DNA of 64,000 nt, taken from contig JAYFMW010000015.1 in assembly GCA_042408215.1 (NCBI GenBank), positions 14,669-78,668 of the forward strand. The letters run 5' to 3'. This DNA is from Microcoleus sp. (GTDB taxonomy: Bacteria > Cyanobacteriota > Cyanobacteriia > Cyanobacteriales > Microcoleaceae). Position numbers and translations under genes: made by a program. Of this stretch, positions 1 through 42,332 are shown piece after piece. The notes under the pieces were generated by a model, which saw only the letters and a program-made list of their open reading frames with translations, was not told where the DNA came from and made no database searches. The stretch's first letter is position 1. The number at the start of each line of letters is the position of its first letter.

Positions 1-114
1 CGGACGATAAGCCAGCATGAATCCTACTCGCTCGGTATGCGCTGATAGCCTTCCTAAAAGTACCATCGGATCAGGTATGTGAAAACTAAAGGCTGTTAAT
101 AAAGACTCGATTGG

Positions 115-141
115 GAGTTTGTCAGCGCAACTGACAAACTC
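115..141. terminator. Hairpin downstream of the minus-strand biosynthetic operon, possible terminator
   Basis: GAGTTTGTCAG-cgcaa-CTGACAAACTC, a perfect 11 bp stem about 200 bp past the GNAT stop. Confidence 0.4.
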
Positions 142-335
142 CAGATGAGTCTCAAGATTAATTCCGCCCGAACTATTTGCCTGAGATTCATTTTTCTTGG
201 CTAGTTCAAGGGATAATAACCAATGAAATTCTAATTGATTCGACATATTTGATAGCACCTTCAGAAATTAGTTTCACAGGATTTATATAGGTCTAAGAGG
301 ATGTTTGGAAAGTCAAATGTTCTTTTGCTCAACTC

Positions 336-1310
336 TCATAGGGATTTATCGCTCACGTTTTGAGTCTGCCATTCATACACCCAATACTCCAGTTCTTCAG
401 CTCGCTGGTATCCTGCGATATCCAGGGACTCAAAGATGCGATCGCTAATAGGAAACATCCCACCAACCGCCAGATAACCCTTGCAATAAGCAAAGGAGCG
501 TAACTCGCGCAGGAGAGTCGTTAAACCTTCATCCGTGCCATTGGCATAACCAAGCCACAAAGTTTGATGAGCGCCTTTCCACAATGCTTCATTAACTCCT
601 TCAAGGTAATCAATGGTATGGACAGGCATCTGAATAGCTAAAGCGAACATTTCATTGCCACGCTTTAGTCCCCATACTCGTCCTTCGTTGAGGTGATTCT
701 TCAGTTGCTCGCAAGTTAGTTCTTGCCACTTAGTGGGGTCATTAAGGTAAAGATACGACTCTCGTGTAAACAAGTTAGAACTTGTGACTAATGCCCAAGC
801 CGAATCAAAATCATCAATATCTAGATGTAACAGTTGTTTTACAGGAGAGTTTAGAGAGTCAGCTTTATAAGGAAAATAGCGACCGACTTTTTGACGACGT
901 TGCCACTTACTATACTTGTCTATGAAAACATTACTGGAGCAGGTGGAATAGCGTAAAACATTGATGTTTGTTTCTACAAAGAATCGCTCTATATGCTGCT
1001 CCAAAGTCAATAGCAGATGCAAACCTAGACCCTGCTGTCGATAATGAGGAGCTACTCGCAGACCTTGATACCAAGCTTCTCGCTCAGACATCAAGACGAA
1101 TCCTAAAATGCCTATCGGTAAACTATCTACTTCAACTACAAAGACCCGACTGTTGGGGTCAGCTAACCACTTGTTCCAACCCAAGGGGAGAAAGTCTGAT
1201 GAGTGTTGCCATGTCTGTTGGCAAATAGCCAGCACCGCCTCTTTGTCTTCAGCTCGTGCTAGGCGCACTTCTACGTCAGTAATTGTTTCTGTCTTAGCTT
1301 TTAATTCCAT
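336..1310 (-). CDS. GNAT-family N-acetyltransferase (N-terminal GNAT domain plus C-terminal domain)
   Basis: VRLARAEDKEAVLAI start; acetyl-CoA motif A LRVAPHYRQQGLG; overlaps upstream PLP gene by 10 bp. Confidence 0.85.
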   Translation of the reverse strand: MELKAKTETITDVEVRLARAEDKEAVLAICQQTWQHSSDFLPLGWNKWLADPNSRVFVVEVDSLPIGILGFVLMSEREAWYQGLRVAPHYRQQGLGLHLLLTLEQHIERFFVETNINVLRYSTCSSNVFIDKYSKWQRRQKVGRYFPYKADSLNSPVKQLLHLDIDDFDSAWALVTSSNLFTRESYLYLNDPTKWQELTCEQLKNHLNEGRVWGLKRGNEMFALAIQMPVHTIDYLEGVNEALWKGAHQTLWLGYANGTDEGLTTLLRELRSFAYCKGYLAVGGMFPISDRIFESLDIAGYQRAEELEYWVYEWQTQNVSDKSL

Positions 1311-2431
1311 TTTCGCAATGCTTTCTTAAGTAATTCAATTCCCTCAAGGATAGTTTCAGTTGGATAGCCAAGAGGAATTCTGACGTACCCGTCAGGAGAG
1401 GCTCTAAAAGTTCCAGAAGTTACCAGAACCAGCCCAAATTCAGTCAACATAAAGTCGGCAAATTCTTCAATATCTCGAACGGGAAGTTTGACAAAATACT
1501 GAAGTCCCCCTGCGGGATGCTCAAAGGCAATTTCAATCATCTGCGATAAAGCAGCACCAACAATTTCTCTATTCTTAACTACCCGTTCCACTAAGGATGG
1601 ATTGCCTCGTTTCAGAATTTTTAGCGCTTGTTGTTGAGCGGGAGAGCAGATCCCTAGGCTTTCAATCGTTAACAAAGCTGTTAACGATTGAATGTTATCC
1701 GAACTAGAAATAATCCAACCAATTCTAAGCCCAGGAGCGGAAAAATTTTTACTCATCGAGTTGACTACATAAAGATTTTTCCAATTCCCTTGCAGGGATA
1801 GAGGCTGGATGAGCTGATTTTCTTCAAAAACAAACTCATCATAAACTAGGTCTGCAATTAAACTAGCTTGACAGCTTTGGGCTAACTGCAAAAGCTTTCT
1901 AAGGCAATCTTCTGAAAGAATTTCTCCTGTGGGATTGTTCGGGGTGTTGACAAATATGACTCGAAGATTGTCTGTGACTTTTTCTTGTAAGCTAGACCAG
2001 TCTATCTGATTGTTTTCTACCGAGAAGTATTCAACCCTATAACCGCACGTTTGTAATAGTTCTGCAATGCACCAAAATATAGGTGCTTGACACAGTGCTA
2101 CAGCACCGGGACGGTAGAGAGAACGAAAGATGAGAGACAATCCATGTAAAGCACCATTGGTTACTAGCGCTTCCGAAGGTTGTACGTTGAGGTGATACTT
2201 AGAAAATTCCCGGTAACAAATGGCTTCGATGAGTTGGGAACTTCCCTGAGTCAATGGGTAATTTCCTACAAATGATAATTCACAGTTAAAATCATCAAAC
2301 TCCGTTTCTAACCATTGAGACGTGTTGCCAGTTATATTTATGGGATGTTTAATGAAACGATGAGCGTACTGGAGTCTTTGTACGACCAGAGAGGTAGGGG
2401 AATTTAAATCAACAACTCTAGTTTTTACCAT
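1301..2431 (-). CDS. PLP-dependent fold-type I (class I/II aminotransferase-like) enzyme; possibly a GntC/VioD-type cyclodehydratase
   Basis: TNGALHGL, NTPNNPTG, ADLVY, NSMSKNFSAPGLRIGW (PLP lysine), YVRIPLG; divergent N-terminus. Confidence 0.85.
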   Translation of the reverse strand: MVKTRVVDLNSPTSLVVQRLQYAHRFIKHPINITGNTSQWLETEFDDFNCELSFVGNYPLTQGSSQLIEAICYREFSKYHLNVQPSEALVTNGALHGLSLIFRSLYRPGAVALCQAPIFWCIAELLQTCGYRVEYFSVENNQIDWSSLQEKVTDNLRVIFVNTPNNPTGEILSEDCLRKLLQLAQSCQASLIADLVYDEFVFEENQLIQPLSLQGNWKNLYVVNSMSKNFSAPGLRIGWIISSSDNIQSLTALLTIESLGICSPAQQQALKILKRGNPSLVERVVKNREIVGAALSQMIEIAFEHPAGGLQYFVKLPVRDIEEFADFMLTEFGLVLVTSGTFRASPDGYVRIPLGYPTETILEGIELLKKALRKWN

Positions 2432-2465
2432 TTTATGAGCCTTATAATAGTTGCCTCAATCACTT

Positions 2466-2734
2466 TCTTGGCGTAAATACGAGTGCTAGTTGTGGCAATT
2501 CGTCCATTCAACCCCCATCGTGGTTTATCAGTCTTATTTTCCATAGTACACTGTTTTTCCGCCGGATTTAAAAGCTACCCAGAACATCTGATTATTCCAA
2601 CCAGTCGGTAATTGTTCTCTCCAGGTTTCTGGCAACCAACCATGAACAAACTTGAGTTTTGCCAGGATATAAAAGAAAGCCAGTTTAAGAGAAAACCTCC
2701 AATCAAATAAGGAAGAACTTGTTGTTGCTGTCAT
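2466..2734 (-). pseudogene. Internally deleted third copy of the Fe/2OG halogenase gene
   Basis: 2542-2734 is near-identical to the first ~64 codons of 6611..7825; 2466-2541 matches that gene's 3' region (KTDKSRWGLNGRIATTSTRIY) out of frame. Confidence 0.9.
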
Positions 2735-3004
2735 GTGTAAGTATCTTATATTTTATAGCTAGCAGGGCGACGAAAGAGGCTGAAAAGCATCCGTTGTTTT
2801 GGGTTTATATGTTTCGTATGCCTTCGGTCTACCTAAAATTTATAGAAACAACTTTATTCTCTAAGACTTCCCCTTCGGAACCGGGAAAAGGCACCTAAAT
2901 CCTATGTGCCTTTTCCAGAAAGAATTTCAAAATTTTAAAAACCTAAACAATGGACGAAACCTTTGGCCAGTACGCATTAGCAAAAATAAGGTGCGGTTGC
3001 CCTA

Positions 3005-4156
3005 TTAATCCTCGTCAATTGGATTGTCAAATCCGTAGTCTTCAAGTTGGCTATCCCGTCGTATATCGCAGGTGACGCAGTGAAATGAGCCGCCAAAACT
3101 ATAGACATGACGAAAAGCAACCGGAATGACTTCAAATCCTAAATCTTTGAATAATTTATGCATTGGCTCTTCTTGCTTTTCCACGATTACCCGCTTGGGA
3201 TCTAAGATCAAGATATTCATGGACAACCACGGGCCCGAACTATAAAGTGGATAATTATCGGGAATAGTGGGTTGCACGGCTGTCACAACATCCCATCCGG
3301 CTTTCTTAAAAATGTCGATTTGATAACAGGGTCTGTCGGGATTGGTTAAAACTAATCCAGGTCTTAGGGGTACAAATGTAGCATCTATATGGATTGGGTT
3401 TGAATCTCGGAACTTCAGTATATGAACCCGAAAGCGTTCACCCAGATGATTTCTGAGCCAAGTAATGCCTAGTTTATTGGTAACTTGACTGCGCTGAACA
3501 AATAAGTCTCGTCCGCAACGAGTAATATCAGCAGCATCAAAGCAAGGTTCAAACTCAGTTGTTACAAAACGCCCAACTTCTGCTAGTGCGTACCGATCTT
3601 CAACAGTTTCCATAGGATAGTCAAAGTCATACAATTCATCGCTCATTAAAGGTTTGGGAGCTGTCGTCCATTTAGCACCCTGTTTCAAATATTCCTTCAT
3701 TAAAGACCGATAAGCTCGATATTCAAAAAACCTTGATCGCCACGCCATTGGCGCTTCAATAATCTCATTGCCGATAACAGTTAGTATATCTCGCGGCATA
3801 ACGGCATGCAGACCTGTGGCTTCAAAATCTGGAGTTTTATAGCTCTCAGAAAAATCAATAATATCCGGTCGCCTTACAGTTACCCCTTCTCCTTCCAAAA
3901 CCCGGCAAAACTCCTCCAATTCCTTTGATGCTGGTTCTATCATTTCTTGAGGGTATGGACAACCACCATACTTTTGGAAAAACCACCAGTTTTTAGGATT
4001 TGAACTTGCTTTGAGGGGAACATCGAACTGAGGAACACAGGCTCCCTCAACGCGACCCACAATAATTTCTTGCAGCGTATCCCATTCATTGTAGCTATTA
4101 ACTATTGGCAGGGTTTTAGTGGAAGTCAAGCTTTTGGGATGATTGTTTTTCAACAT
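3005..4156 (-). CDS. L-arginine-dependent amidinotransferase (glycine amidinotransferase/AGAT-like)
   Basis: [28 protein letters not shown] (Asp), HIDATF (His), [10 protein letters not shown] (Cys): catalytic triad present. Confidence 0.95.
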
Positions 4157-4247
4157 TATATTGTCCTCGTAATAAAATACATTTGCAAAAACTGGGCTTA
4201 AAAATGCTCATGTCTTACGGAAGCATGAATATTTTCTATTTCTCAAA

Positions 4248-5321
4248 TTAGAGGTTTTTCTTAACATCTAACCTGGCAGTTTTCTTGCCCCTATCTAACT
4301 GATTTACTTGCCGAATTTCTAGCATTTTTGCTAACGCTATAACTTGCCTAAATAAACTAACCCAACCCTTTTCTTTATTTCGAGAGGCGTAAACTTTATC
4401 TTTCAGCAAAATCTGGTGCGCTTGCTTGTACTGCCACGAAGGAATACCAGGAAAAAGATGATGCAATAAGTGATAACCTTCCCAATGCATTCCTAAGAAA
4501 AAATTAGCCACGGGAGAACAAAGCCGATTTCGGGACATAAACAAATCAACCAATTTTAGATTTTCCATCCTGCCTTCAGTTTCCTCCGGAGTTACTTCCA
4601 TTAACGGGTAATGCTCGAACAACTCAATAAACGCTCCAATCCAATTAGCCGTTGTTAGCAGAGGAACCCACCAAAACAGCAGTAACAACCACCCCCAGCC
4701 CAGCCAGATAAACAGTGAATTCAACACAATCATATAGACTAGGCGCACTAGCTTCTCTCGAAATTCCTCCTGCGAATTCAAGATTCTGTTTTTGAGTAAA
4801 TAGCGCAGGTAAATCAGAGTGGTTGCTGGGTGAACAATGTTCCATAAATAGCGGCGCACGTTGTTAGCTTCTAAATTCGCTCCGTACAACCCACTCTCCT
4901 GTAACCCAACGTAATCTGGGTCTAGCTTGGAGTGCCCCAAATGACCGTGATGCTGGAAAACGTGGGAGGAGCGATAACCTGAATAACTTTGCAACACCAG
5001 ATAACCCGAAGGAAACGTCCCCAAGACAAAATTGAGTGCTTTATTCTTTGCCAAGGTTTTGTGCGTTGACTGGTGGAGTAAATCTGCTAAAGCACGCATC
5101 CTGCCACCAATGATCAAAATCGCAACTAAGTAAACCATTTCGCCTACGACTCGTGGCCAGTGCTGCCACGTTAACCAAGAAGCAAGCGTTGCAAGAGCAA
5201 TAATCGCCCAATCTTCAGCGAGTTGCACGAACCCGTGCCAATTATCAAGCTCAAAGCAACAACTTAACTCTCTGAAGATTGCGGCGTCGAAGCGATAACG
5301 CTTAATTTTTATCATTAGCAA
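4248..5321 (-). CDS. Membrane di-iron fatty-acid-desaturase-family enzyme (desaturase or amino-acid hydroxylase; GntB-like is possible)
   Basis: His boxes HQSTH, HVFQHH, EH, HLLHH; several transmembrane segments; probable start ATG at 5315. Confidence 0.85.
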   Translation of the reverse strand: MLMIKIKRYRFDAAIFRELSCCFELDNWHGFVQLAEDWAIIALATLASWLTWQHWPRVVGEMVYLVAILIIGGRMRALADLLHQSTHKTLAKNKALNFVLGTFPSGYLVLQSYSGYRSSHVFQHHGHLGHSKLDPDYVGLQESGLYGANLEANNVRRYLWNIVHPATTLIYLRYLLKNRILNSQEEFREKLVRLVYMIVLNSLFIWLGWGWLLLLFWWVPLLTTANWIGAFIELFEHYPLMEVTPEETEGRMENLKLVDLFMSRNRLCSPVANFFLGMHWEGYHLLHHLFPGIPSWQYKQAHQILLKDKVYASRNKEKGWVSLFRQVIALAKMLEIRQVNQLDRGKKTARLDVKKNL

Positions 5322-5327
5322 CAGTTC

Positions 5328-6527
5328 CTATTTAGTCGAAGCAGAGTCAAGCCTCTTTTCTAATTTTTCTGTGTATCTGTTATATCCAAAACGATCTTCA
5401 CCTCTGAGCAGAACTGCTCTCCACTTGTCCAAATTAATGTTTTTGAGATGTAAGTACTTGTTATGATGCAACCCTCCTAACATTTTCTTGGTGTAAATAC
5501 GAGTGCTAGTTGTGGCAATCCGCCCATTCAATCCCCATCGTGATTTATCAGTCTTATTTTTGAGGGAACCGTGAATCACTCGCTCAGTAAACAGATAAAA
5601 CTGCCCAGCTTTCATTTCGATGTAATGGGGTTGTGGCAACTCGCCTGGGTAATCGATCTGAAGATCCGGCGCACCCTCTAGGTTGGCTGTCTCTACGTTG
5701 ATCGGATAAATTTCATTAGTTCCGGGCAGAATCATCATGCAGCCATTCTCTTTGTTGGCATCGGTTAAAGCAATCCAGCAGGTTAGTTGGTAAAGCTCCT
5801 CATGGTCTTCTGGAGTCACTATCGATTCTTGCTGATTTAGCAAAAACCAAGTGCTGGCTTGATGTAATGTTGTTTCCTGACCGGGCTGAACTTCAAAAAA
5901 TTTAGTTCTCCACAAAAGAAGATTCGGTCCTAAAAGTTGAGCCGCTCGTTCAGTAATCGCAGGATGTTTAAACAGATTTAATAATCGATTGTTATCTAAA
6001 TGACGATCGATTTTATTGATCGTATAGAAAAAATGTTTTTTATATTCTTCTGTCAATTCTAGTTTCCAAGGTGTCACTTCTAAACCACTTCTACCAGTCG
6101 TGTCAAATTCATAATCTCCGGCAGTGAAAGAAAAATGTTGTGATTCAGTTTCCAGCAAGAAATTGACGAGATATTGCTGCAACTCCTCCATTTCATCTGA
6201 AGGTAGTAAATCGAATGGGCCGACATAGCCATTCTCATAGAAACCACGGATCTGTTCCTCAGTCATCTGAAATTCAGGGGCAACCGATGCTTTAGGTTTG
6301 TAAGATTTCGGTTCTTTTAATCGGCAATAGTAATCATAGTATGCTGTTTTCCCGCCGGATTTAAAAGCCACCCAGAACATCTGATTATTCCAACCAGTCG
6401 GTAATTGTTCTCTCATTTTTTCTGGCAACCAACCATGAATAAACTTGAGGTTGGCCAGGATATAAAAAACACCCAGTTTAAGGGAAAACTTCCAATTAAA
6501 TAAGGAAAAATTTGTTGTTGCAGTCAT
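5328..6527 (-). CDS. Fe(II)/2-oxoglutarate enzyme, SyrB2/CmaB/BarB-like putative halogenase, copy 2
   Basis: ENGYVGPFD, WRTKFF, HQAST (H-x-A), WIALTDANKENGC, KAGQFYLF...IHGS...R. Confidence 0.8.
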   Translation of the reverse strand: MTATTNFSLFNWKFSLKLGVFYILANLKFIHGWLPEKMREQLPTGWNNQMFWVAFKSGGKTAYYDYYCRLKEPKSYKPKASVAPEFQMTEEQIRGFYENGYVGPFDLLPSDEMEELQQYLVNFLLETESQHFSFTAGDYEFDTTGRSGLEVTPWKLELTEEYKKHFFYTINKIDRHLDNNRLLNLFKHPAITERAAQLLGPNLLLWRTKFFEVQPGQETTLHQASTWFLLNQQESIVTPEDHEELYQLTCWIALTDANKENGCMMILPGTNEIYPINVETANLEGAPDLQIDYPGELPQPHYIEMKAGQFYLFTERVIHGSLKNKTDKSRWGLNGRIATTSTRIYTKKMLGGLHHNKYLHLKNINLDKWRAVLLRGEDRFGYNRYTEKLEKRLDSASTK

Positions 6528-6610
6528 GTGTCAGTCTCCTATATTTTCTAGTTAATGGGCGATGAAAAGGCTGAAAAGCTTACGAAGTAATCAAGTATCG
6601 ATATCATTTC

Positions 6611-7825
6611 CTACTTAGTCGAAGCAGAGGCAAGCTTTTTCTCCAATTTTTCTGTGTATCTGTTGTATCCCAAACTATCTTCACCTCTTAGCAGAACAAC
6701 TTTCCACTTATCCAAATTAATGTTCTTCACCTTTGAGTACCTGTTGCGATAGAATCCTTCTAACATTTTCTTGGTGTAAATGCGAGTGCTAGTTGTAGCA
6801 ATCCGTCCATTCAATCCCCATCGTGATTTATCAGTCTTATTTTCGACGGAACCGTGAATCACTCGCTCAGTAAACAGATAAAACTGCCCAGCTTTCATTT
6901 CGATGTAATGGGGTTGTGGCAACTCGCCTGGGTAATCGAGCTTGGCATCCCGATTGCCATAAATACCACTCATCCCATCCTGGGTGACTTCCCCTACCTT
7001 GATGGGATAAATCTCCTTATGAGTCCCTGGGAAAATCATCATGCACCCATTCTCTTTGTTGGCATCGGTTACAGCAATCCAGCAGGTTAATTGGTACAGA
7101 TACTCATGGTCTTCTGGATACATTATCGATTCTTGCTGATTGGCAAAAAACGTGCTGGCTTGATGTAATTTTGTTGCCAAACCGGGTTGAATTCCAAAAA
7201 ATTTAGTTCTCCACAAAAGAAGATTCGGTCCTAAAAGTTGAGCCGCTCGTTCAGTAATCGCCGGATGCTTAAACAAATTCATTAATCGATCTTCTTCTAA
7301 ATGACGATCAAACTCATTCATCGCATTGACAATATATTTTTGATAGTCTTCAGTGATTTCTTGATTCCAAGCTGTCAATAAATCATCTTTCTTAGTCGTG
7401 TCAAATTCATAATCTCCTGCCGTGAAAGAAAAACATTTTGATTCAGTTTTCAGCAATGAATTGACGAGATATTCCCGCAAATTATCCATTTCATCTGGAG
7501 GTAGTAAATCGAATGGGCCGACATAGCCATTCTCATAGAAACCACGGATCTGTTTCTCAGTGAGCTGAAATTCGGGGGCTACCGATGCTCTAGGTTTGTA
7601 AGATTTTGGTTCTTTCAACCGACAATAGTACTCATAGTACACTGTTTTCCCGCCGGATTTAAAAGCCACCCAGAACATCTGATTATTCCAACCAGTCGGT
7701 AATTGTTCTCTCCAGGTTTCTGGCAACCAACCATGAATAAACTTGATTTTTGCCAGAATATAAAAGAAAGCCAGTTTTAGAGAAAAATTCCAATCAAAGA
7801 AGGAAGAAGTTGTTGTTGCAGTCAT
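6611..7825 (-). CDS. Fe(II)/2-oxoglutarate enzyme, SyrB2/CmaB/BarB-like putative halogenase, copy 1
   Basis: Paralogue of 5328..6527; HQASTFFAN resembles SyrB2 HQADTFAN; distal His and 2OG-binding Arg retained. Confidence 0.8.
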   Translation of the reverse strand: MTATTTSSFFDWNFSLKLAFFYILAKIKFIHGWLPETWREQLPTGWNNQMFWVAFKSGGKTVYYEYYCRLKEPKSYKPRASVAPEFQLTEKQIRGFYENGYVGPFDLLPPDEMDNLREYLVNSLLKTESKCFSFTAGDYEFDTTKKDDLLTAWNQEITEDYQKYIVNAMNEFDRHLEEDRLMNLFKHPAITERAAQLLGPNLLLWRTKFFGIQPGLATKLHQASTFFANQQESIMYPEDHEYLYQLTCWIAVTDANKENGCMMIFPGTHKEIYPIKVGEVTQDGMSGIYGNRDAKLDYPGELPQPHYIEMKAGQFYLFTERVIHGSVENKTDKSRWGLNGRIATTSTRIYTKKMLEGFYRNRYSKVKNINLDKWKVVLLRGEDSLGYNRYTEKLEKKLASASTK

Positions 7826-7878
7826 GTGTAATTCTCCTAAATTTTATATCTAGCGGGGCAATTTGTTCATGTTGGAAT

Positions 7879-9228
7879 TCATTGAAGAACTTCCTGTTCT
7901 AAAAGATACTGAAGCGCCTCAATGACTCGGTAGGCTGAAAGCTTGCGCGAGGTTTGGGTGAGAAATTCAGAAACCACATCGCTGGCTTTTTTGGAGGCGG
8001 TACACAACTGACAAAGCAATCGCAAATCTTTGGCTGGTAAATACATATTTAACCTTAATTTGCTGGCGATTTGAGGCGATTCTCGAAAACTCAGGAGTTT
8101 TGAGGGTGAAAGTGTAATTTGACCTCTTCTTGGTTGCCAGAAAGGGGAGTTGGGCCAACGGGTTTCTTGGGCATAGTATTTGCACCTATCTTGCAAATAA
8201 ACTTCAAACTGATGCAGAGTTTGAGATTCGTATGCGGCAAGAGCGTCCCGATCGCCGTCAAAATAACGGGCGATCGCAAAGGCAGCCTTAATTCCTGACT
8301 GTAAAGCCTTGTAAATGCCAGCAGAAGAAAGCGGGTCAAGAGTACAAGCCGCATCTCCAACAGCCAGCCAGCCATGACCTGTCATCCGATCTAAGTACTG
8401 GGAAAAGGCGGGCTGAATCAAAAGCCTGGATTGAGAAGAGGCGTGAGAGGTTAACTCCTGAATATACTGCGTTTTCTTTAAATAAGCTGTCCAGGTTTCT
8501 GGCCGGAAGAGCTTATGTTTTCGCAGCAGTTCGCTATCGGTCATTAAGGTGATGATCGCACGGTCATTAGGCAGACGGGCGGCGTACCACCAGCCAAATT
8601 CCGTTGCTTCTACCAAAGTGTGGTAATTTTTTGGAGCCTCTTTTTCCCAGGTAAACACTGAGGCAACAGCGAGCAGGCGATCCATCCTGACTTTGTGTGC
8701 CCCAACCCTGGTGGCTAAAATACTTCGATGTCCGCTCGCATCGACTACGAAGGTCGTTGTCACCTGGAATTGGCAACCGTTTTTGGTTCGCAGTGTCAGT
8801 CTCCATTTGCGATCGGCAAGTTGGTTACAGCCTACCACTGTTGTCTCCCGCATTAAAATCGTACCACATTCCTCTGCTGCATTAGCCAGCGCTTTATTGA
8901 ATCTTGCCCGATTCAGATGCCAACCGTTCCCCCCAGGATAGAAAAAGAAATCCTGAAATCCCAATTGGGTTCCACCCCATGCAGAACTATTTCCCAATGA
9001 GGGGAGGTGACCATCTCGTTCAAAGGAATCAAGCACTCCTAATTGCCCTAAAACAGTTCGTATATTGGGGGGAACTGTTTCACCAATGCGAAAGTCATCC
9101 AGGCGGGATTTTTCTAGGAGGGCAACGCGCTTTTCCCCTTGCTTTTGCAGAGCGATCGCGGTTGCTGCTCCGGCGACACCACCACCGACGATCGCCAGAT
9201 CGATTTCTGGTGGCAGATTGTTATTCAT
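7879..9228 (-). CDS. lodB: LodB/GoxB-type flavoprotein (CTQ maturase)
   Basis: GGGVAG Rossmann motif, RIGETVPP, VVDASG, GWWYAA, AVGDAACTLDPLSSAGI; overlaps the 3' end of the LodA-like gene. Confidence 0.85.
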   Translation of the reverse strand: MNNNLPPEIDLAIVGGGVAGAATAIALQKQGEKRVALLEKSRLDDFRIGETVPPNIRTVLGQLGVLDSFERDGHLPSLGNSSAWGGTQLGFQDFFFYPGGNGWHLNRARFNKALANAAEECGTILMRETTVVGCNQLADRKWRLTLRTKNGCQFQVTTTFVVDASGHRSILATRVGAHKVRMDRLLAVASVFTWEKEAPKNYHTLVEATEFGWWYAARLPNDRAIITLMTDSELLRKHKLFRPETWTAYLKKTQYIQELTSHASSQSRLLIQPAFSQYLDRMTGHGWLAVGDAACTLDPLSSAGIYKALQSGIKAAFAIARYFDGDRDALAAYESQTLHQFEVYLQDRCKYYAQETRWPNSPFWQPRRGQITLSPSKLLSFRESPQIASKLRLNMYLPAKDLRLLCQLCTASKKASDVVSEFLTQTSRKLSAYRVIEALQYLLEQEVLQ

Positions 9229-11128
9229 AAGGCAAATTTCTTTTTAGTTCGGTCAAATCTGAACTGTCCCGACTGCGGTATCCCTGTGGGCTATCGAAGA
9301 CTTCGTTTCCGGCTGTTGGTGTTGGTCGAAGAGGCAAAGTTCTTTCTACTTCTGCGAAATAGGAACCTTCCCAATTGATTGCTTCTAGGGCTTCCTTGTA
9401 TTCTTCTACTGTTGAGATATCAAAAACGAATCCGAGTTGATGCCACTTCTCTACCATCTCTAAATCATCGGCAAATGCAATGTAATCGGGGGCTTGCTGG
9501 TCGTAGTCGGTTCCCAGCCAAGGAACTTGTTCATTTTTGATTTTTTCGGAAGGAGCGTCTCTTAGCTGGGGATTGGGTGGCAAATACACAAACTCCGGTC
9601 GTTGGGCAGGCCACCACCAGACAAAACGGCCATCAATGGGTTGGGAGGAACATTCATTGAAATCTGCCTGCCAAGGCAATGCCATGAACTTGCTGATATC
9701 TCCTGGCTCTAGCCCTTCTTCCAAATTCATGTCTAAACTAAGCCGAGCCATTGGCTTCATTTTTTTATGTTTGATGCGGAAGAGTTCCGAGTATATCTTG
9801 GGGTTGCGTGAAATCCAAGTCATTTCAATACCAGGAGAAAAAGCTCCCCCTACACAGTTTTCCAAAGTGGCACGAGTTAGATGTTCGCCAGGATCTTCTT
9901 CCTGAGAATTAATTTCGTTGTTTGTAAACTTCCCCTTTGCCCACTGTTCAAGCAGAAAATATTGGGTCTGGGTCAAGGTCAGAAATTTGGCTGATTTCTG
10001 GCTTGCCCCGGTCGCATCATCCCCCGCTAAATACGGCATCATAGGATAGCCCGTTGTGGGAGATTTCAAAGTATTGTTCATACTCGGCGGTCGGACTTGG
10101 CTAAAGAAGTATTGCCGCATACTGTTGTAGCGTTTATCGGAATTTCCCAACAAATCGTAGTCAAAGGTGTGAGGTTTGGGCGGCATGGCGGCAACCCAAG
10201 GAAATAGGGAAGCACGTTCTAAGATGGGTCGGATTTCCTGGTTGAAATCTGGGTGATAATCCTGATTCCAAAAACCATTTTTATAAATATAATTATCCCC
10301 ATCCTGACGATATCCCATCTGCCGAACTGCGACATCAAATATGGTGTCGTAAAGCGTAACCAGATTGAGAAGCTGCGGGGCATAGGCAGGGGGGGCAACT
10401 AAGACCCAAGCAGGGACAACTTCAATCGTTTGGCCATTATCGAACATCACTGTTGCTGTAACTGGTCCATCGGAGGTGTCATCCCACCAGCCATCATTAT
10501 TGGCATAATCGGTGATAACAGGATTTTGGTTTGAACCGGAATGACCGAATCCTCCCACTACAATCAGGCGTCCTTGAGAATCGGTATGTATCTTTCCTAG
10601 AGAGTCGATCCCATCGGGTTTTAAACCCTTCGGAGGGAAGGTCATGGGATATTCAGTTTGAGAAGATCGGGAGAAATTGGCAGATTGATTTGGTCCGGTC
10701 AAAATCCTGCCACCCGGATCGATAATAAGTTCGTACCTTTGTGCGGGATCGGAAATACTGCTGTTGCGTAAAGGATGGTTGGAAGCATACCCCTGTTCGC
10801 CGTTTTTGGTCTGGAACTCATACCAGATAGCTTTTTTATTTGCCAAGCGAACAGTCCATATAATTTTGCTTACCTCAAGCTGTCCAATCTTCTCCCCAAC
10901 CACAATTTCTTGCGGTTCACCACCTGACTCAGGGTAGCGATAAATACGAAAACGCGCTCCTTGCCGACGTAGATTTTTGTCGCTATCTCGGAAGTCACTG
11001 GGTTGAAACTCGCAGCCATCGAGCCGAATGGGAAGTCCCCCTGCTTCTTCTGGGGCTAGATAATACTCTTCACTATTTCCAACGCGGGCAACACCAATGG
11101 AAGGAAAAATTTTATAAGTATCTGCCAT
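9221..11128 (-). CDS. lodA: LodA/GoxA-family cysteine-tryptophylquinone amino-acid oxidase
   Basis: IFPSIGVARVGNS, LRRQGARFRIY, LANKKA, NNDGWWDDTSDGPV, GGAFSPGIE, PWQADFNEC (CTQ Cys), WWWPAQRP (CTQ Trp), W..LGF. Confidence 0.95.
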   Translation of the reverse strand: MADTYKIFPSIGVARVGNSEEYYLAPEEAGGLPIRLDGCEFQPSDFRDSDKNLRRQGARFRIYRYPESGGEPQEIVVGEKIGQLEVSKIIWTVRLANKKAIWYEFQTKNGEQGYASNHPLRNSSISDPAQRYELIIDPGGRILTGPNQSANFSRSSQTEYPMTFPPKGLKPDGIDSLGKIHTDSQGRLIVVGGFGHSGSNQNPVITDYANNDGWWDDTSDGPVTATVMFDNGQTIEVVPAWVLVAPPAYAPQLLNLVTLYDTIFDVAVRQMGYRQDGDNYIYKNGFWNQDYHPDFNQEIRPILERASLFPWVAAMPPKPHTFDYDLLGNSDKRYNSMRQYFFSQVRPPSMNNTLKSPTTGYPMMPYLAGDDATGASQKSAKFLTLTQTQYFLLEQWAKGKFTNNEINSQEEDPGEHLTRATLENCVGGAFSPGIEMTWISRNPKIYSELFRIKHKKMKPMARLSLDMNLEEGLEPGDISKFMALPWQADFNECSSQPIDGRFVWWWPAQRPEFVYLPPNPQLRDAPSEKIKNEQVPWLGTDYDQQAPDYIAFADDLEMVEKWHQLGFVFDISTVEEYKEALEAINWEGSYFAEVERTLPLRPTPTAGNEVFDSPQGYRSRDSSDLTELKRNLPYE

Positions 11129-11213
11129 GTCTGCCTCCTTTTCTTATGATTTTTGTCAACAGTTTGCCAATTGCTGTTTCACTCTGATGCAAGCGAGGGC
11201 TTCTTTAAGGATT

Positions 11214-12479
11214 TCACAAACGCTCTCTCAGGGAGCTTCCTTGAGTTTTTTGGTTGATGTCTTGAAGGGTGTTATCAACTGCGCTTACAGTAGCTGCAAT
11301 GGGTCGTAAATCAACATCTAGACTAGCGGCTGAATCTAACTCTTTTTTTAACTGCTCTACTTTGAGGATAAGCTCATCCAAAGAAGTCGAACTGTACTGA
11401 AAACAGGGACCCGCATTCGGACCAAGAGTTCCAGCTTTTTCCTGAATGGGAATTTGCATTAACTGAGTGGCTAGTGTGGTAAAGATGCTTTGCATTATGG
11501 GGACAATCACTGCAAAGTAGGGGTCAGTTTCTATTACTTTGTCTGGACCAAAGGTCTCTTGCAATGCTCTGACTAAAAGACCATAACAGTCGTTGAAGAC
11601 TTCTGCAAGCCTTATAGCCCACTGGTTTTGAAACTTTTCTGGCGAGGGATTGGGCAGCATGGGATAAGTTTCTCCAATAGGAATCGTCCCGTCTGCCAAG
11701 TCTTTGAATTTAAAGAAATGGGACATATCGAAGGGAGTTCCTAGTATCGGACCGTAGGTTTCATCGTTACGAAGACCATAGTAGTTATAGGTTCCCCAAG
11801 GTTGGTCGGGTTGATACTCTCGGTTCGGGGGTACTGCACCCTCTCCCTGTTGCATGATTTGATTAATCGCCTCTTTCGCCGTGTCCAAATTCTCGACAAG
11901 GATGGCTTTTCCACCGCCACTGCCAAAGTATAAGTTGGTTCGCTGCAATTCAGTTTGGTACTTAAAGTCCGGTGGAAGCTTTTCAAACTCCTTTTTAATG
12001 GCTTCATAGAATTGCCCAATTGTCTGAGATTTATCGTCGTCTACTGTTGTGTCCAACGGTGCGGGTCTTTCGATAGTCATAAAGGTTTGTAGCATCAATT
12101 CCGGTGATGCTGCCATAAGTTGGACATAAACACCACCTGCCACTTGATAAGGCATAGAGTTGGGATAGTCCCAAATCTCGCCTACTAACTTGGGAATACC
12201 CCCAACGGAATTCATCAGGTTACAGGCAAGGTTAAGGTGTAGCATTTCTTCCAATACCACACTTCTGAATGTCTGATAAGCCTGAGAAGTTTTATCTTTA
12301 ATAGAATATAGAGCTGTGAGGTAGGGAGGAATGGTAAAAAACTCTATGATTAATGCCTTCTGAAGCATCGTCTTTATCGTCTTTACCGTCTCGTCAGGAG
12401 AATCGCCGGAAGAAGGGTTTACCTTCTCAATTCGCGGTTGGCGTTGAGAAAAAATCGCTTGGCGTTTAGAAGTAGTCAT
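11214..12479 (-). CDS. Ferritin-like domain protein (VioB C-terminal-like family)
   Basis: LQKALIIEFFTIPPYLTALYSI, EEMLHLNLACNLMNSVGG, TIGQFY, QQGEG, SHFFKF. Confidence 0.85.
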   Translation of the reverse strand: MTTSKRQAIFSQRQPRIEKVNPSSGDSPDETVKTIKTMLQKALIIEFFTIPPYLTALYSIKDKTSQAYQTFRSVVLEEMLHLNLACNLMNSVGGIPKLVGEIWDYPNSMPYQVAGGVYVQLMAASPELMLQTFMTIERPAPLDTTVDDDKSQTIGQFYEAIKKEFEKLPPDFKYQTELQRTNLYFGSGGGKAILVENLDTAKEAINQIMQQGEGAVPPNREYQPDQPWGTYNYYGLRNDETYGPILGTPFDMSHFFKFKDLADGTIPIGETYPMLPNPSPEKFQNQWAIRLAEVFNDCYGLLVRALQETFGPDKVIETDPYFAVIVPIMQSIFTTLATQLMQIPIQEKAGTLGPNAGPCFQYSSTSLDELILKVEQLKKELDSAASLDVDLRPIAATVSAVDNTLQDINQKTQGSSLRERL

Positions 12480-12548
12480 TGTATTGTTCCTTTGTGTTGC
12501 AAACAGTCAAGATACTCGTTATTAGGCGGGATAACTTGGCCCCATAAG

Positions 12549-12608
12549 CTAGAGCAACCCCTCCCTAAGAATTGCGCCGTCAAAGCGATAACGCTCAACC
12601 CTTGACAT
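12549..12608 (-). pseudogene. 5' vestige of a desaturase paralogue (MSRVERYRFDGAILREGLL*)
   Basis: Matches the desaturase N-terminus MIKIKRYRFDAAIFRE at protein and DNA level (cgttatcgcttygacgscgcaaty). Confidence 0.6.
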
Positions 12609-14140
12609 TAACCGCACTCTTGGCAACGCTGTCAGCTTTACCATTGATTGATTGGGGGTTAACTTGCGGCACAGAGGAAGGCACGGCTGTTTTGATAAAT
12701 TCGTAATAAATCGACAAGAACACCTCATCTAGCGGCACATCGCGCATCATCTGCTTCGCCTTTTCCCGCAGCTTTTCGTGTGCCGAGTTGTCGAGAACTG
12801 CCATTTCAAACAGCAGGCGAAGATAGGACTCTAGTTCGCGGGTACGGTTGTAAGGCAAAAAGCCACCGGGTTCCCGTACTGTTGCCATCAAATCGCGGGC
12901 ACCCACCTCCAGCAACCGCTGGAACGGATTTTCATTGCGACGACGTTCAATCATCGGCGAGAACACATTCTCCGTGGGGGGTTGTTTGCCAAGTAGCTCT
13001 GCCGTCACAACCTGAGCAACTAACGGAGCCATCAGCATCCCATTCCTGTAGGTTCCCGTCGCCACGAACAACCCTGGAAATGCAGTTTTTCCAACTAAAG
13101 GAATCCCATCAGCGGGAATGGGACGCAATCCATAACGCATTTCTTCGATTCTGGTATTTCGCAGCGCAGTATTGAACTGGCTAGCCCCATCACCAAGAAT
13201 ATAGAGGAGGTCTTGAGGTTGAACTCCCAAACTCATTTGGGCAGTCAAGCTCAAAGAATTGGTTGCCCCCCACGTATAAGCGTCCCTCACTGCGAGGAAC
13301 AACGTGCAATCCGCACGCAAAGGAACGATTGGGGGTGCGAAGCGTGTGGGGAAAATGGGGAGCATCTGCCAGAATACAACTGGTGCCTTTGCCAAATAAC
13401 ACCGCAGGCAGCTTCAGCTTGGAAAACAGCGTCTCACCGATAACTTCTGGGACTTTCGCTCCCGCACATACCACCACATGAGGCGTGGAAATGCAACCGT
13501 GGTTTTCGGTTTGGATGTTCCATGTGCCTTCAGTGTCCCCAAAATTGATCGAAACAACTTTATCATCTAAGACTTCCCCTTTGGGGTGTAGTGCGATCGC
13601 CACCTCAAGGGCTGATAGTAAGTTGTGAGAATCAACTGACCCTTCACCAGGGATAAACAACGCTTGGTAAGCCGGACAGGAATTGTTGGCATCTAAACCG
13701 GGAACGTCGTCTGGATCGACCCACTCATGGGGTTCATTATAGGTTTCTAGTTGGGCTTTCATGCGCTTGAGATTGGCCCGATCGCGATCGCCTGCACTGT
13801 TGCCAATAATAAATGTTCCTTGTGTGGTAAATATCTCTTGCCCCGATGCCTCCCTCACGCTAGAGAGCCAATCTGGGTAAATCTTCTGCGCTTTGATCCG
13901 AAACTCCAGTTCAAGGCGTTCTTCAAGAGTCTCCTGGTCGGCAGTAATCTCGCCGTATGCGCCCAACATAGCACCACTAGCCAGCGAGGCTCCATCACTA
14001 TTCTGCTGCTGGGGATAGATCAGCACAACCTTCAAACCGGAACGGGCTAGTTCAAAGGCGATGGATTTACCAATAATTCCACCACCAACAACTACGGCAT
14101 CATATGAATGATGGCTGGTGACGTTGTTCTGTAAAGTCAT
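12595..14140 (-). pseudogene. FAD-dependent amino-acid oxidase (ThiO/DadA/DAO-like) split by a +1 frameshift (real lesion or sequencing error)
   Basis: VVVGGGIIG, GASLASGAML in 13190..14140; GLRP, ATGTYRNGMLMAP in 12595..13395; removing one C from the C6 run at 13266-13271 restores GRLYVGATNS. Confidence 0.85.
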
Positions 14141-14255
14141 TTCTTTTCTGCCAATTCTGTGAAACCTTTCTAGTTACTTAAAATAAAACACTGTTCAATC
14201 TTACGGGATTGTTGAAGGCATTTGTCAAAAATACTAATCCTTATTTTCCAATAAA

Positions 14256-14924
14256 TCAAGTAGGAAAAGTAGGAAGATTTATCAGGAGAGCTATAAAACC
14301 CATTTGACATCTTTTAGCGATCGCCCACAACGGTCGAGCGGTCATAACAGTCGATCGGTCATAACGGTCGATCGCCCGCACAAGCTGTTTTTTGAGGTCA
14401 TTATTATCTGTAGAAGTTTGGCACTCCTGCGGCGCTCTCTCTAGCTGCGAACTATCTTCATTTACCAGAAAGCCGCGATCGCAAATCAGTGATAATTGCT
14501 CGCTATCCCCTGAGTAGGAAGCCTCCACAAAATCAGTGGCAACAGGTAACTGATTAGTGGTAGGCGTTAGTGGTGTGTCTATTACTTCTACTAATTCTAA
14601 GGTAACAGATAACTGGTCACTAGCCACTGTTTCACCTGTCCGGGAGAACAGATATTGCTTGAGCACTAAAAACAGATTTTTTTTCCTCACTCTCTCCCCT
14701 AATGCTTTTGAAAAAGCCTGCCACAACTGGGAGCCAATTTCTTTGATGTGAGCGATACTATAGGCACTATCGGCTGCCATCTCGCTATAACCGCGTCCGA
14801 GCCATGAGTGACACAGGATTAAGCGCTCAAGAGAACTCAGTTGCTTAGAGAGCAGACTTTGTTCTACAGTGTCCAGAACTTCGTCAACATTCATGTAGTG
14901 ACTCCATTTGAGTAGTATGCACAC
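14256..14924 (-). pseudogene. Cyanobacterial HTH-type N-terminal domain protein (as on HTH-AAA proteins), truncated by an IS end
   Basis: LSSLERLIL..SW.G.GYSEMA..SAYS..HIKEIGSQLWQAFSKALGERVRKKNL is homologous to the N-terminus of 24250..25599; the last ~40 codons run through IS-end DNA. Confidence 0.65.
14292..14384. mobile_element. Solo terminal end of an IS5-family element
   Basis: TATAAAACCCATTTGACATCTTTTAGCGATCGCCC...GATCGCCCGCACAAG matches the reverse complement of the IS end at about 58676-58717. Confidence 0.8.
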
Positions 14925-15224
14925 AGCAAGGAACGCTCTAGATTCTTAGACCCCAAAACAGGCAGTTAATAAAAGAAGGCTTTTATGCAGATAGCAGAGG
15001 GGAGAAGGACAAGGGCTCAATTACTGTCAGCGGACATTCACCAAACAACTTCACTATTAATTATTCAGTTGTTTAGCTCAACGAGAAATAGATAAAGTTG
15101 GTATGTTTGTGTAAAGTTATATTGCTGCGATCCTCTTACTGCACAAGTAGTTGATTTTGTCAATATACTAAATTGGTCAATTAATTGCCCAACTAGAGCT
15201 AAAGATTGGTTCCAAGAGGCGCGA

Positions 15225-15430
15225 CTATTGACAAAGTTGTCGATCGCCCTCTTCCACCTCTGCATTAGTCCGCAGATAATCTCGCACCCAATTACAGCCA
15301 TATTCCAGCAGGTCAAGTTTGAGTATGCGCGCTAAATCCCAGACAACGAGAGTATTATCTTCACCTACAGAAGCTAAAAAACTGCCATCAGGCGCGATCG
15401 CCACATTCCAAACTGAAGTCCTATGTTTTT
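15225..15430 (-). pseudogene. Duplicated 3' fragment of a WD40 gene paralogue
   Basis: HRTSVWNVAIAPDGSFLASVGEDNTLVVWDL...[24 protein letters not shown] versus upstream gene end [24 protein letters not shown]. Confidence 0.8.
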
Positions 15431-15438
15431 CGAGAGGT

Positions 15439-18400
15439 CTATTGGGGAGATCGATCGCACAAATGTCGATCGCCCTCCACCACCTCCGCATTAGTCCGCA
15501 GATAATCTCGCACCCAATCGCAGCCCGCCGCTACCACCCGATCTAGCTCTACAGACTGCTCTAAATTCCACAAAATTACCGTTTTGTCCTCAGAAGCCGA
15601 AGCCAGAGTTTTGCCATCAGGAGCGAAAGCTAATCCCTTAACCCCAGCACTATGTCCAATCAGATTTGCCAGGAATGTGCCGTCAGACTTCCAGAGTTTA
15701 ATTATTCCATCATTACTCCCTGTAGCGATCGTCTGACTGTCAGGGCTAAACGCTACACTCCAAATCCCAGAATCATGTCCCTTAAGAGTATGCAGTAACT
15801 TTCCATCACGACTCCAAAGTTTAGCCGTCTTGTCTTCACTTACCGAAGCAATCAATTCGCCATTAGGACTGAAAGCTGCGTTCATAACTGTACTATTATG
15901 AGCTTGAATAGTCTTGAATAAGCTATCCTCACTTTTGACTTTTGATCGAGAATCTAACTTGCGCTTTTGATTCAAAACTGAAGCCAAACGCCAAAACTTT
16001 AGTGTCTTGTCGCCACTGCTCGATACAAGTGTCGAACCATCGGGACTAAAAGCCAGTCCCCAAGTCCCCGCCTTGTGTCCTCTAAAAGTAGCGATTTCGG
16101 TGCCATCGACGCGCCAAAGTCTGACTGTGCGATCGCTACTCGAAGATGCAACCATATTACTGTCAGGGCTAAAAGCGACTTTCCTAATATCACCCTGATG
16201 TCCTTTGAGACTATGAAGCAATGTACCGTTTGGACTCCAAAGCTTGATTGATTGGTCAGCACTAACAGTAGCAATTGTTTTACCATCTGCACTAATAGCA
16301 ACTGAGCTAAACTGAGGATTTTGCCCTTGTAAGCGCCGATTGCTAATCCCGTCCTTGCCCCAGAGGATAACCTCCTTTGGACTCGATGAAGCCACTAACC
16401 GTCCGTCATTGCTCAAAGCCACTCCCCAAACTCCAGCCGTATGTCCCCGCAGAATTGTCAGCAACCGATTGCGTAATTTCCAGGCTTTGATAGTGCCATC
16501 CCAAGAAGCAGAATATAGTGTGTCGCCCTTGGAACTAAATGCAATATCTTTAATGGCACTGTCATGGCCTTTAATAGCATTCAAAGAAGTACCATCGAGA
16601 CTCCAGAATTTTAGCATCTTGTCGTCAGAGCCAGAGACGATTATTTGCCCATTCCGGCTGAAAGCTAGTGCATTAATTGCAGCATCGTGTGCGGTAAAAG
16701 TCCTTAACAAAGTGCCGTCACGCTGCCACAGTTGCAGCTTGCCGTCTCCATTGCCGGTTGCCAGGATTTTGCTATCAGGAGTAAAGGCAAGTGAGAAAAC
16801 AGGAGATTGAATATCTGAAAGTGTTTTCAGCAATCTGCCATCCCGCTGCCAGAGTTTTACAGTGCCGTTATCAGAAGCCGAAGCAATCAACTCTCCATCT
16901 GGGCTAAAAACTACTTGCGTAACGATCGCCCCATGCCCTATCAATGTCTTTAGCAATGTGCCATCGACGCGCCAGAGTTGGAGCGTACTGTCCGCACCGG
17001 ATGCAACAATCAGTTCTCCGTCAGGACTAAACTTGACTTTGCTAGCTGAAGCTGTAAACCCTTTCAAAGTTTTCAACAAAGTGCCGTCACGTCGCCAGAG
17101 TTTGACGGTTGTGTCTCCGCTTCCTGAAGCAATAAGCTGACCGTTGGGGCTGATGTCTACTCCTAGAACTGGACCTTGATGTCCTTTGAGGGTGCCCAGC
17201 AATCTGCCATCGCGGTGCCAAATTTGGATGCCATCTTGCAAGGTTGCCACAGCAATCATCTCGCCATCAGAACTGACATCTAAGGCGTTATTGGCGGAAT
17301 CATAACCGGAAAAGCGGTTAAATTCAACAGCTCCATAAATTGACCGCCGCAAAGCTAATTCCACCATTGCTTCTGTCTGCGGATCGGTTAAGGCCAAGTG
17401 TTTGAGTTCTTTTCTTGCCCTCAGCGCTTCAATTAAAGCATCTAACCTTTTATCTAAGGCAAAGAGGGCTGACGAATATCTAGCCATGCCTTGAATTTTT
17501 TGTATTTCCTCATTGCGTTGGCTAACGATCGCTTTTTGGTACTGGAAGAAAGCGAATATTCCCGCTGCGATCGCGATTGCTAAAGCGATCGAAAGTCCCG
17601 CAATCAAATAAGTTTGGCGTTGGGCGCTTTTTTTCTTGAGTGCCAGCCTAGCTTCTATTTCTTTAAGACGTTCTGCTTCTAAAAATAACTGCAATTCTTG
17701 TCTGTCTACTTCTTGGCTAGCGGCTAAAAATAAATAATCTAAATCGCTCAAACTTTTACCTTGCGCCCACATTTGAGCGTCTTTTAAGGCTTGTCCGCGC
17801 AAGAGACGGGAATTATCCTGTTGCCCTGAAGCTACCCAAGCATCAAACACCTGCGAGTAAGGCCGCAGGTTCCCTAATTTTTTTTCAACCCATTGCAGAT
17901 TAAATACTTGTTGATAGATGGGATTTTTGACCTTTAATATTCCCTCGTGTCTGACGACTAAGCCACTCAGTAACAATTCAATCTGTTCTTGACTATCATC
18001 ACTTTTTATTTCAATTCCTTGCAAAACTTTTTGATAAATGCCGAGAATTCTACCAGCCCGTTGACCGTTACGTTCAATGCGATCGCGTATAGTTCTCAGG
18101 TGTTCCGGTTCATCCTGGGATTCCCAACGTTCAATAATGCGAGTTTTAACTAAATTCTCAATCCAGAACGATTCCGTACCAGGTGGAATACTCATCTTGC
18201 CACCATTTCCCATTGTCTGCTGACTCAATTGCACGACTAAATGACACAACTTCTGAGTCAAAAACGGTTGTCCAGCCGTCCAGTCTATAATCGCCCTCAC
18301 AACCGATGCAGGCTGTTCCACCGTCTTTTCTAACCCTTGAATTAAGGGAGTCACTTCCGACCACTCAAACCCTTTTAGTGCGATCGCTTGCCCAATATTA

Positions 18401-20640: not shown

Positions 20641-20681
20641 TACTCTTAAGAAGAGTTTTGTAATTTATTTGGTAAACACAA

Positions 20682-21173
20682 ATGTCTAGTGATGTTAGCT
20701 CAATCATTGCCAAATGGGCCTATAAATACTTTCGGGACTTCGATGGAGTACCTCCAGATAGTGACAAGCTGACCTATGCAAAAGCACTTCTAATTTGTGC
20801 GAAGGGAGATGGGGAATTAACAGCAAAAGAAAGAGACTGGGTGATTGGTTTTACTGCGCTCAAAGGAGTCCCAGCTTCCGTTATTGAAGAACTGAAAAAT
20901 TACCCGGCTACAGAGAATTTGCAAGAAGTTCTGGCTACTAGCCAGTCGATTTTCCAGACATCAACACATAACCTGATTTATGATGCAATACAAGCTTCTG
21001 CTGCTGATGGTGAATATGCTGAAGGAGAAAAAGAAGCGATTCGTGAAGCAGCATCTATCCTAGGAATTTCTGAGGATGCAGTTAAGCAGCTTGAGGAACT
21101 ATACGAAGAGGAACAGAAATTGTTTGCCAAGAAAATTCAGTTGTTTTTTCCCAAAGGGAAGCCTCAGTATTGA
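20682..21173 (+). CDS. TerB-like (tellurite resistance fold) protein
   Basis: Two A.GDGE/AADGE-x-x-x-x-E motifs and AASILGIS. Confidence 0.65.
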   Translation: MSSDVSSIIAKWAYKYFRDFDGVPPDSDKLTYAKALLICAKGDGELTAKERDWVIGFTALKGVPASVIEELKNYPATENLQEVLATSQSIFQTSTHNLIYDAIQASAADGEYAEGEKEAIREAASILGISEDAVKQLEELYEEEQKLFAKKIQLFFPKGKPQY

Positions 21174-21225
21174 CAGATGGATTCCTCATGCCATTTTCAA
21201 TCGCAAATGTATCTTCCGTAACCCT

Positions 21226-21394: not shown

Positions 21395-21520
21395 ATCCTT
21401 AGTTTTTTCTAGAGCTACTGCCTCCTTAAGCGGAACTTCCCTGGCGAGGGAACTTCCGCTTGAACATATTACCCGCTGTGACTTTCCAGAATTCTGGAAA
21501 ATCTGTTACCAAGCGATTGG

Positions 21521-22869: not shown

Positions 22870-22889
22870 AAGTTTAAAGAATTCCTTGT

Positions 22890-42265: not shown

Positions 42266-42332
42266 TTCAATTATGCCGGAGAGACAAGTTTGTTTCTCCG
42301 GCAGCCGCAAACATCTTTCACCACATTCAAAA

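Follow-up and report, generated by a model that had tools for sequence, protein, structure and literature searches.

Two SyrB2-like Fe(II)/2-oxoglutarate enzymes in a carrier-free gene cluster of Microcoleus: candidate halogenases of a free acid

Can a halogenase of the SyrB2 type act on a free acid, without a carrier protein to present it? The question is raised by two neighbouring genes, here called Hal1 and Hal2, in a 64,000-nucleotide stretch of Microcoleus sp. DNA (GCA_042408215.1, contig JAYFMW010000015.1, positions 14,669 to 78,668). This whole stretch is the window, to whose numbering coordinates refer unless a locus is named. SyrB2 serves as the model system for an iron enzyme's preference for chlorination over hydroxylation. 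Its tethered substrate hampers both substrate-bound structures and catalytic applications, and these would become easier with an enzyme of the SyrB2 fold that accepts a free acid. We see about an even chance that Hal1 and Hal2 are Fe(II)/2-oxoglutarate (2OG) radical halogenases that chlorinate a free acid derived from arginine or lysine, with the two paralogues acting at different positions or on different intermediates. The reading is built on the motif, the fold, the clade and the gene context of the pair. Papers are cited by PMC number, each for the passages that were available.

Iron site, fold and place in the family

Hal1 (6611..7825, minus strand) encodes 404 aa and Hal2 (5328..6527, minus strand) 399 aa. 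The two proteins are 78% identical, and PhyH is the sole Pfam family that they match above cut-off. The original prediction had picked out His-Gln-Ala within WRTKFF...HQAST, together with a distal His and Arg, as a halogenase-type iron site; all of these are present in both proteins and have counterparts in SyrB2. Among seven solved relatives (counted at E values up to 0.01), SyrB2 was the best phmmer match (E 1.8e-31), followed by CytC3 (5e-25). In the phmmer alignment, H221, Q222 and A223 of Hal1 fall on His116, Gln117 and Ala118 of SyrB2, and H324, R335 and R341 on His235, Arg248 and Arg254 (SyrB2 residues counted along this alignment, as chain numbering minus 3). The iron site of Hal2 is the same. 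A predicted structure of Hal1, made with a 105-row alignment as input (pLDDT 91, pTM 0.90), superposed on SyrB2 with Z 29.9 and rmsd 2.5 over 270 residues, in the model range 82-393 that forms the SyrB2-like core, and Foldseek also returned SyrB2 as first match of the model (E 5e-26). The SyrB2 fold that had been expected is thus borne out by superposition. A single-sequence model of Hal2 reached a pLDDT of 30 and was not used.

His-Gln at the iron site is kept in 119 of 120 listed homologues, so the motif is not a product of chance. Homologue counts in this text rest on these 120 of a total of 287; 117 of the 120 have both His. Hal most probably works like a radical halogenase. H221 and H324 would hold the iron and R335 the 2OG, and we infer that A223 leaves the third iron site to chloride. 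A ferryl species would then take a hydrogen atom and the chlorine be transferred to a methylene or methyl group, a mechanism that is established for the family and would extend to Hal.

The place of the pair within the family was read from a quick tree of the catalytic core (117 rows, no bootstrap; L106, P0170 and P0176 dropped beforehand), in which annotated CmaB and HctB look-alikes stood in for SyrB2 and HctB themselves. Hal1 and Hal2 fall within a clade of extended proteins with 48 rows (SH-aLRT 99), separate from the CmaB clade (16 rows, SH-aLRT 99) and the HctB-like clade (5 rows, SH-aLRT 100). A second extended group (26 rows, SH-aLRT 89) stands beside the Hal clade, in a relation that the tree leaves open. 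Hal has the fold, His-Gln-Ala, the distal His and the Arg248/Arg254 and Thr143/Trp145 positions in common with SyrB2, CytC3 and CmaB; however, it is ~30% identical to them, and its TIGR01762 scores (155.2 and 147.1 bits) stay below the curated cut-off of 226.3. The pair is not SyrB2 family in the strict sense; within the wider SyrB2/HctB family it belongs to a branch of its own, with an N-terminal extension. The SyrB2 subfamily label given to it at first fits its site and fold, but is too narrow. BesD and WelO5 were not among the PDB matches listed for Hal by phmmer, Foldseek or structural alignment, and AspX and BtnX were likewise not among its listed matches; no direct comparison was made with any of them. 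The nearest named relative comes from Microcoleus sp. S13_C3 (locus L001), which is 99% identical in Hal1.

Four features had gone unmentioned in the original prediction: an 80-aa extension, Lys208, Glu320 and a third, broken Hal copy (2452-2734). The extension makes up about the first 80 residues of both proteins (1-80 in Hal1), is not present in SyrB2 and was modelled in Hal1 as four confident helices. A protein atlas search with residues 1-85 returned no named family (best score 0.86). We considered an amphipathic membrane anchor for the first helix and rejected it: the mean hydrophobicity is 0.39-0.50, but the moment just 0.07-0.22. The helix may be buried or form an interface.

Ser231, which like Thr143 and Phe196 has a role in SyrB2, is replaced by Glu320 in Hal1 and by Glu in 107 of the 117 homologues. 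By alignment this Glu would lie near the iron, which makes it a candidate compensating ligand. The pair might then not be halogenases at all: Glu320, water or the substrate would fill the iron site, and a free guanidino substrate would be hydroxylated, desaturated or cyclised. The available passages of a review on cyanobacterial guanidine products, which contain neither 'halogen' nor 'chlorin' (PMC12371840), would fit with this. However, HctB is a proven halogenase with an equivalent Glu. Its Glu223 lies four residues ahead of His227 (PMC6218459, a computational study with a homology model), the spacing of E320 and H324 in Hal1, and an Asn-x-Arg follows in both (Asn243 and Arg245 in HctB). Of 13 relatives with His-Gln-Asp at the site, 11 have the Glu as well, and it occurs together with Asp/Glu at 223 in 5 of the 9 homologues that have such a residue there. 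Finally, P0014, which is 66% identical to Hal1 and has the same Glu, is entered under its locus tag in supplementary file 8 of the PMC13489965 atlas, whose filter keeps models without nearby Asp/Glu. Because of HctB Glu223, the His-Gln-Asp relatives and the passage of P0014 through this filter, we judge Glu320 to be more probably a second-sphere residue than an iron ligand, and regard the absence of halogenase activity as unlikely.

Residue 223 and the divergence of the paralogues

Position 223 is Ala in 71 and Gly in 8 of the 117 homologues (79 together), whereas 29 have Ser, Thr or Asn and 9 have Asp/Glu. To place the Asp/Glu label on a FastTree of 121 rows takes at least 7 changes, all forced by starred branches. 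The L038 enzyme (L038:8730-9860) has Ala at the third ligand site and the L078 enzyme (L078:12303-13433) has Glu, along with a change from Thr to Ser at 247; the two proteins are 95.5% alike, with 17 differences, and share their gene order. T247, which corresponds to Thr143 of SyrB2, is conserved in 64 of the 71 Ala forms but in 3 of the 9 Asp/Glu forms. The repeated Asp/Glu gains and the L038/L078 pair fit with a third ligand site that is usable, and left open in the Ala forms. Within the clade, residue 223 thus appears to behave like a switch between halogenase (Ala/Gly) and hydroxylase (Asp/Glu). Two observations at these sites rather favour the non-halogenase alternative. The 29 homologues with Ser, Thr or Asn at 223 match no known halogenase motif, and 4 of the 9 Asp/Glu forms carry Gly at 320, as a compensation model predicts, although these four form a single clade in which the Ala member has Gly too. 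Natural Ala/Glu pairs such as L038/L078 make the question of chemoselectivity directly testable, and if the switch is real, near-identical pairs isolate what else halogenation needs.

Other residues are found at this site as well. Three-domain HctB-like proteins (L159, L160 and L161) have His-Gln-Val, which corresponds to Val113 of the HctB paper; Val, besides Ala and Gly, may leave the halide site open. Two His-Gln-Asn members (L148 and L155) have two gamma-butyrobetaine-hydroxylase-like enzymes and a double methyltransferase as neighbours, and the L148 neighbourhood also has asparagine synthase-like and aspartate decarboxylase genes.

Hal1 and Hal2 pair with other proteins in the tree, not with each other. 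Their 93 differing columns are concentrated in two segments, with 23 at 145-182 and 18 at 276-296. The original prediction had named two loops, which agrees with this, and the stretch just after HQAST, which does not: only 5 differences lie at 226-236. Alignment columns 145-185 have a nonsynonymous rate (dN) of 0.37 and a nonsynonymous to synonymous ratio (dN/dS) of 1.8. The second loop of Hal2 is 7 residues shorter than in Hal1, with 34 residues versus 41-43 in 9 other shown members of its closest group, and lacks the residues aligned to SyrB2 Phe195/Phe196. This divergence in two substrate-side segments and the separate grouping suggest that the two enzymes modify different positions or take different intermediates. 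The pair resembles BarB1/BarB2, two SyrB2-like paralogues that also stand side by side in a cyanobacterium. However, these trichlorinate leucine on the carrier BarA (PMC8407142), and no such carrier is found at Hal. Sequential polyhalogenation of the BarB1/BarB2 kind, which had been put forward for the pair, finds no support, as many loci are single-copy and the pair differs most in the two substrate-side segments.

Carrier proteins and the case for a free substrate

A carrier-tethered substrate would require a carrier protein, and the original prediction had seen none. The wider search agrees. The Hal contig (78.7 kb) has neither a Pfam PP-binding nor an AMP-binding (adenylation) match; the genome, which is 99.98% complete, has 7 and 6 of them, respectively, all on other contigs. 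A carrier-type serine motif occurs in 0 of 60 small frames at positions 1-15500 of the window. There is also no PP-binding match on the Hal contigs of G388, G002, G244 and G394, and in G038 the nearest one is ~400 kb off. G394 has three Hal genes and 2 carrier matches, both on other contigs.

An order-wide search returned any Hal match in 39 of 401 genomes and gave 23 further extended-type loci, about two of which repeat loci already in the first set of relatives. Homologues do not always lie beside a carrier: 17 of these 23 loci have none within ~7 kb according to a home-made profile, extended with the acyl carrier proteins (ACPs) of L034 and L026, whose 'none found' is weaker than that of a Pfam scan. 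Among these 17, the sequence of five ends within ~2 kb to one side, and the Hal genes of three are split. In the controls, a carrier or adenylation gene adjoins all 7 plasmid genes annotated 'chlorinating enzyme'; an eighth plasmid region that was fetched contains a distant PhyH protein, without a carrier.

In SyrB2, Glu102 binds the amino group of the carrier-bound amino acid. Its position is taken by Lys208 in Hal; all 8 carrier-adjacent classical enzymes have Glu there, compared with 0 of the 117 homologues, and HctB-like proteins also lack it. K208 may pair with the free carboxylate of the substrate. A free substrate is supported by this loss of the Glu102 position and by the gene context, which combines free-amino-acid enzymes with the absence of a carrier. 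It would be a free acid of the surrounding guanidino pathway (arginine, homoarginine, a guanidinoacetate-type acid, or 2-oxo, hydroxy or N-acyl forms), or a lysine-derived one.

Several observations weigh against this. The metagenome locus L039, of the extended type, has Glu at 208. Among nine short cyanobacterial relatives, five have a carrier nearby and four do not, so the extension is no marker of carrier independence. Five of the 23 further loci are clusters of type I and type III polyketide synthases (PKS-I and PKS-III) with carriers, and a sixth borders a PKS. Carriers also lie near L053, L054 and L056, and P0158, from a more distant group, is a fusion of adenylation, ACP and Hal domains. 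Above all, the L026 operon, whose Hal is 81% identical, has an adenylation enzyme and a free 89-aa ACP after the GNAT gene, in the same order of regulator, oxidase, Hal, GNAT and transporter as around Hal1 and Hal2. The clade as a whole is mixed for carrier linkage, and the free-substrate claim is therefore limited to the amino-acid clusters and does not cover all members. The free substrate of the original prediction thus has context and the loss of Glu102 on its side, and L026 against it.

It is conceivable that Hal halogenates a tethered substrate supplied in trans, by a fatty-acid ACP, as a coenzyme A thioester, or on a distant carrier of a nonribosomal peptide synthetase or PKS. All characterised SyrB2/HctB relatives use tethered substrates (PMC8407142), and HctB is itself fused to acyl-CoA-binding and ACP domains, which Hal lacks (PhyH only; compare P0191). 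In addition to L026, other members are hosted by clusters with PKS or ketosynthase III (KS III), the 7 carrier domains elsewhere in the genome are potential partners, and the GNAT uses an acyl donor. However, a search for an ACP of the L026 type gave no good match in G000 (best E 0.26) or G476, and the homologue in G388 belongs to a different cluster, which has flavin enzymes but lacks Hal. For these reasons the L026 ACP may serve the acyltransferase. Taken with the carrier matches of G394 and the lost Glu102 position, this makes supply in trans rather improbable in our view.

Free-substrate offshoots of a carrier-dependent lineage have a precedent from 2026 in BtnX and AspX of the CurA branch, which were also found from gene context (PMC13489965). 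These belong to atlas cluster X, related to CurA, whereas the Hal1 relatives are in cluster 1, which groups SyrB2 and the already catalogued P0014 at 30% identity. A separate treatment of P0014 or the Hal1 relatives was not seen in the available parts of that paper, whose figures could hold one. Hal stands out by its distinct clade, by the orphan guanidino pathway around it and by switch pairs that differ naturally in Ala or Glu. We found no description of the subfamily or cluster in the literature searched, most subscription papers lying outside the search. A homologue is labelled 'halogenase' in a lichen Nostoc record, and no paper on it was found. The broadest form of our proposal is that Hal represents a third branch within the SyrB2/HctB family, recognisable by the 80-residue extension and freed from the carrier, which chlorinates free guanidino or lysine-derived acids, would make a new chlorinated guanidine of freshwater mat cyanobacteria, and in which one residue flips between halogenase and hydroxylase at least seven times. 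We put this forward tentatively, leaning against the claim in its entirety.

Gene cluster and other Hal-bearing loci

In the order of transcription, the cluster comprises a regulator, a ThiO-like oxidase, ferritin-like, LodA-like and LodB-like proteins, Hal1, Hal2, a GntB-like hydroxylase, an amidinotransferase, a gene remnant, an aminotransferase, a GNAT and a flavin monooxygenase; all cluster features with coordinates below are on the minus strand. The oxidase (12595..14140) is a ThiO/DAO-like amino acid oxidase that uses flavin adenine dinucleotide (FAD), the ferritin-like protein (11214..12479) matches PF12902, and the LodA-like quinone-cofactor amino acid oxidase (9221..11128) and LodB-like flavoprotein (7879..9228), a putative maturase, score below their family cut-offs. 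Downstream of Hal2 lie the GntB-like desaturase-fold hydroxylase (4248..5321; 261 bits, below the cut-off of 380 of the arginine gamma-hydroxylase model) and the amidinotransferase (3005..4156), whose closest solved relative is L-arginine:glycine amidinotransferase (E 2e-160). The pyridoxal phosphate (PLP) aminotransferase (1301..2431) matches TIGR04544 of beta-methylarginine biosynthesis with 367.8 bits (cut-off 350), the GNAT acyltransferase lies at 336..1310, and the luciferase-like flavin monooxygenase (1..258, start only; 369 aa) runs off the window. Beyond it, a ProVWX-type ATP-binding cassette transporter converges on the monooxygenase. As a side observation, the amidinotransferase scores 537 bits with the human arginine:glycine enzyme and 353 bits with SxtG, and is thus much nearer to the former.

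The nearest Hal homologues are also placed among arginine/lysine enzymes. L029 has an amidinotransferase, L006 and L007 have GntB/GntC-like genes, and L003 and L004 adjoin saccharopine dehydrogenase-like, guanidino-oxopentanoate decarboxylase-like and KamA-like genes. The GntB-like hydroxylase and the arginine-type PLP enzyme recall the guanitoxin and beta-methylarginine pathways; however, the GntB score is 261 of 380 bits and the GntC score 194 of 415, and the Hal operon has no kinase or methyltransferase. The passages available on these two pathways mention no halogenase. We presume a likeness to the chlorinated aminoimidazole girolline, a word that occurred in none of the papers found.

The remnant (2452..2879) consists of a piece of the FAD oxidase (2757-2879) and the third Hal copy, with residues 1-64 and about 326-357. 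It is a duplicated oxidase-Hal unit after an internal deletion, which is also present in L001 and absent from L002. Together with the one-base frameshift that splits the oxidase in this assembly, it could indicate a decaying or reshuffling cluster that has lost its carrier module and in which the Hal genes are left over. Hal genes are partial in L006, L007 and L008 and split in L153, L155 and L156, and dN/dS versus L002 reaches 0.53 for Hal2. However, in the window, L001 and L002 both Hal reading frames are unbroken and no catalytic residue is missing, and dN/dS is 0.15 for Hal1 versus L002 and 0.31-0.35 versus L026. The oxidase is whole (514 aa) in L001 and L002, and contigs from runs X1, X2 and X5, of three studies, cover all 30 bins of the cluster without the extra base. 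For this reason the frameshift is possibly an assembly error or a strain-specific loss, and we consider decay quite improbable as an account of the Hal genes.

The Lod module (7879-12479), by contrast with the cluster core that is otherwise shared, is absent in L001, and the 237 bases of lodB left in L002 show that it was lost there. A LodA-like oxidase inside a biosynthetic operon is worth recording in itself. RNA run X16 reaches just parts of the Lod and oxidase genes and nothing of Hal; the five RNA runs looked at had small shares, and this is no evidence on expression either way.

The Hal clade also points to orphan cluster types other than the guanidino and lysine ones, namely for a sulfated lipid and alkylresorcinols. 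A recurrent cluster (L034, L138, L141, L142, L146 and L151) combines PKS-I, type III PKS, Hal, an ICMT-like methyltransferase, sulfotransferases and a beta-propeller (SBBP); it presumably resembles alkylresorcinol pathways with cryptic chlorination, and we likewise assume a likeness to CylK. Another one (L040, L145, L147, L153, L154 and L156) has KS III, a desaturase, a short-chain dehydrogenase/reductase, a sulfotransferase and Hal, without a carrier, and might make a chlorinated sulfated lipid. Short members of the HctB clade with His-Gln-Ala, near which no carrier was found, occur at L036:10619-11521, L017 and L162:9194-10093; those of L036 and L162 adjoin lysine-decarboxylase-like, DUF3326 and CmcI-like genes.

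Elsewhere in the window, positions 19489-24092 carry, on the other strand and with no link to the cluster, an inositol-type dehydrogenase (above the IolM cut-off), a TerB-like protein, an IS200/605-type element and an MFS exporter. At 41035-53589, open reading frames that from their translations we take to be relaxase-like, Fic, ParA-like, DnaB-like and integrase-like hint at a plasmid or an integrated element as the nature of the contig.

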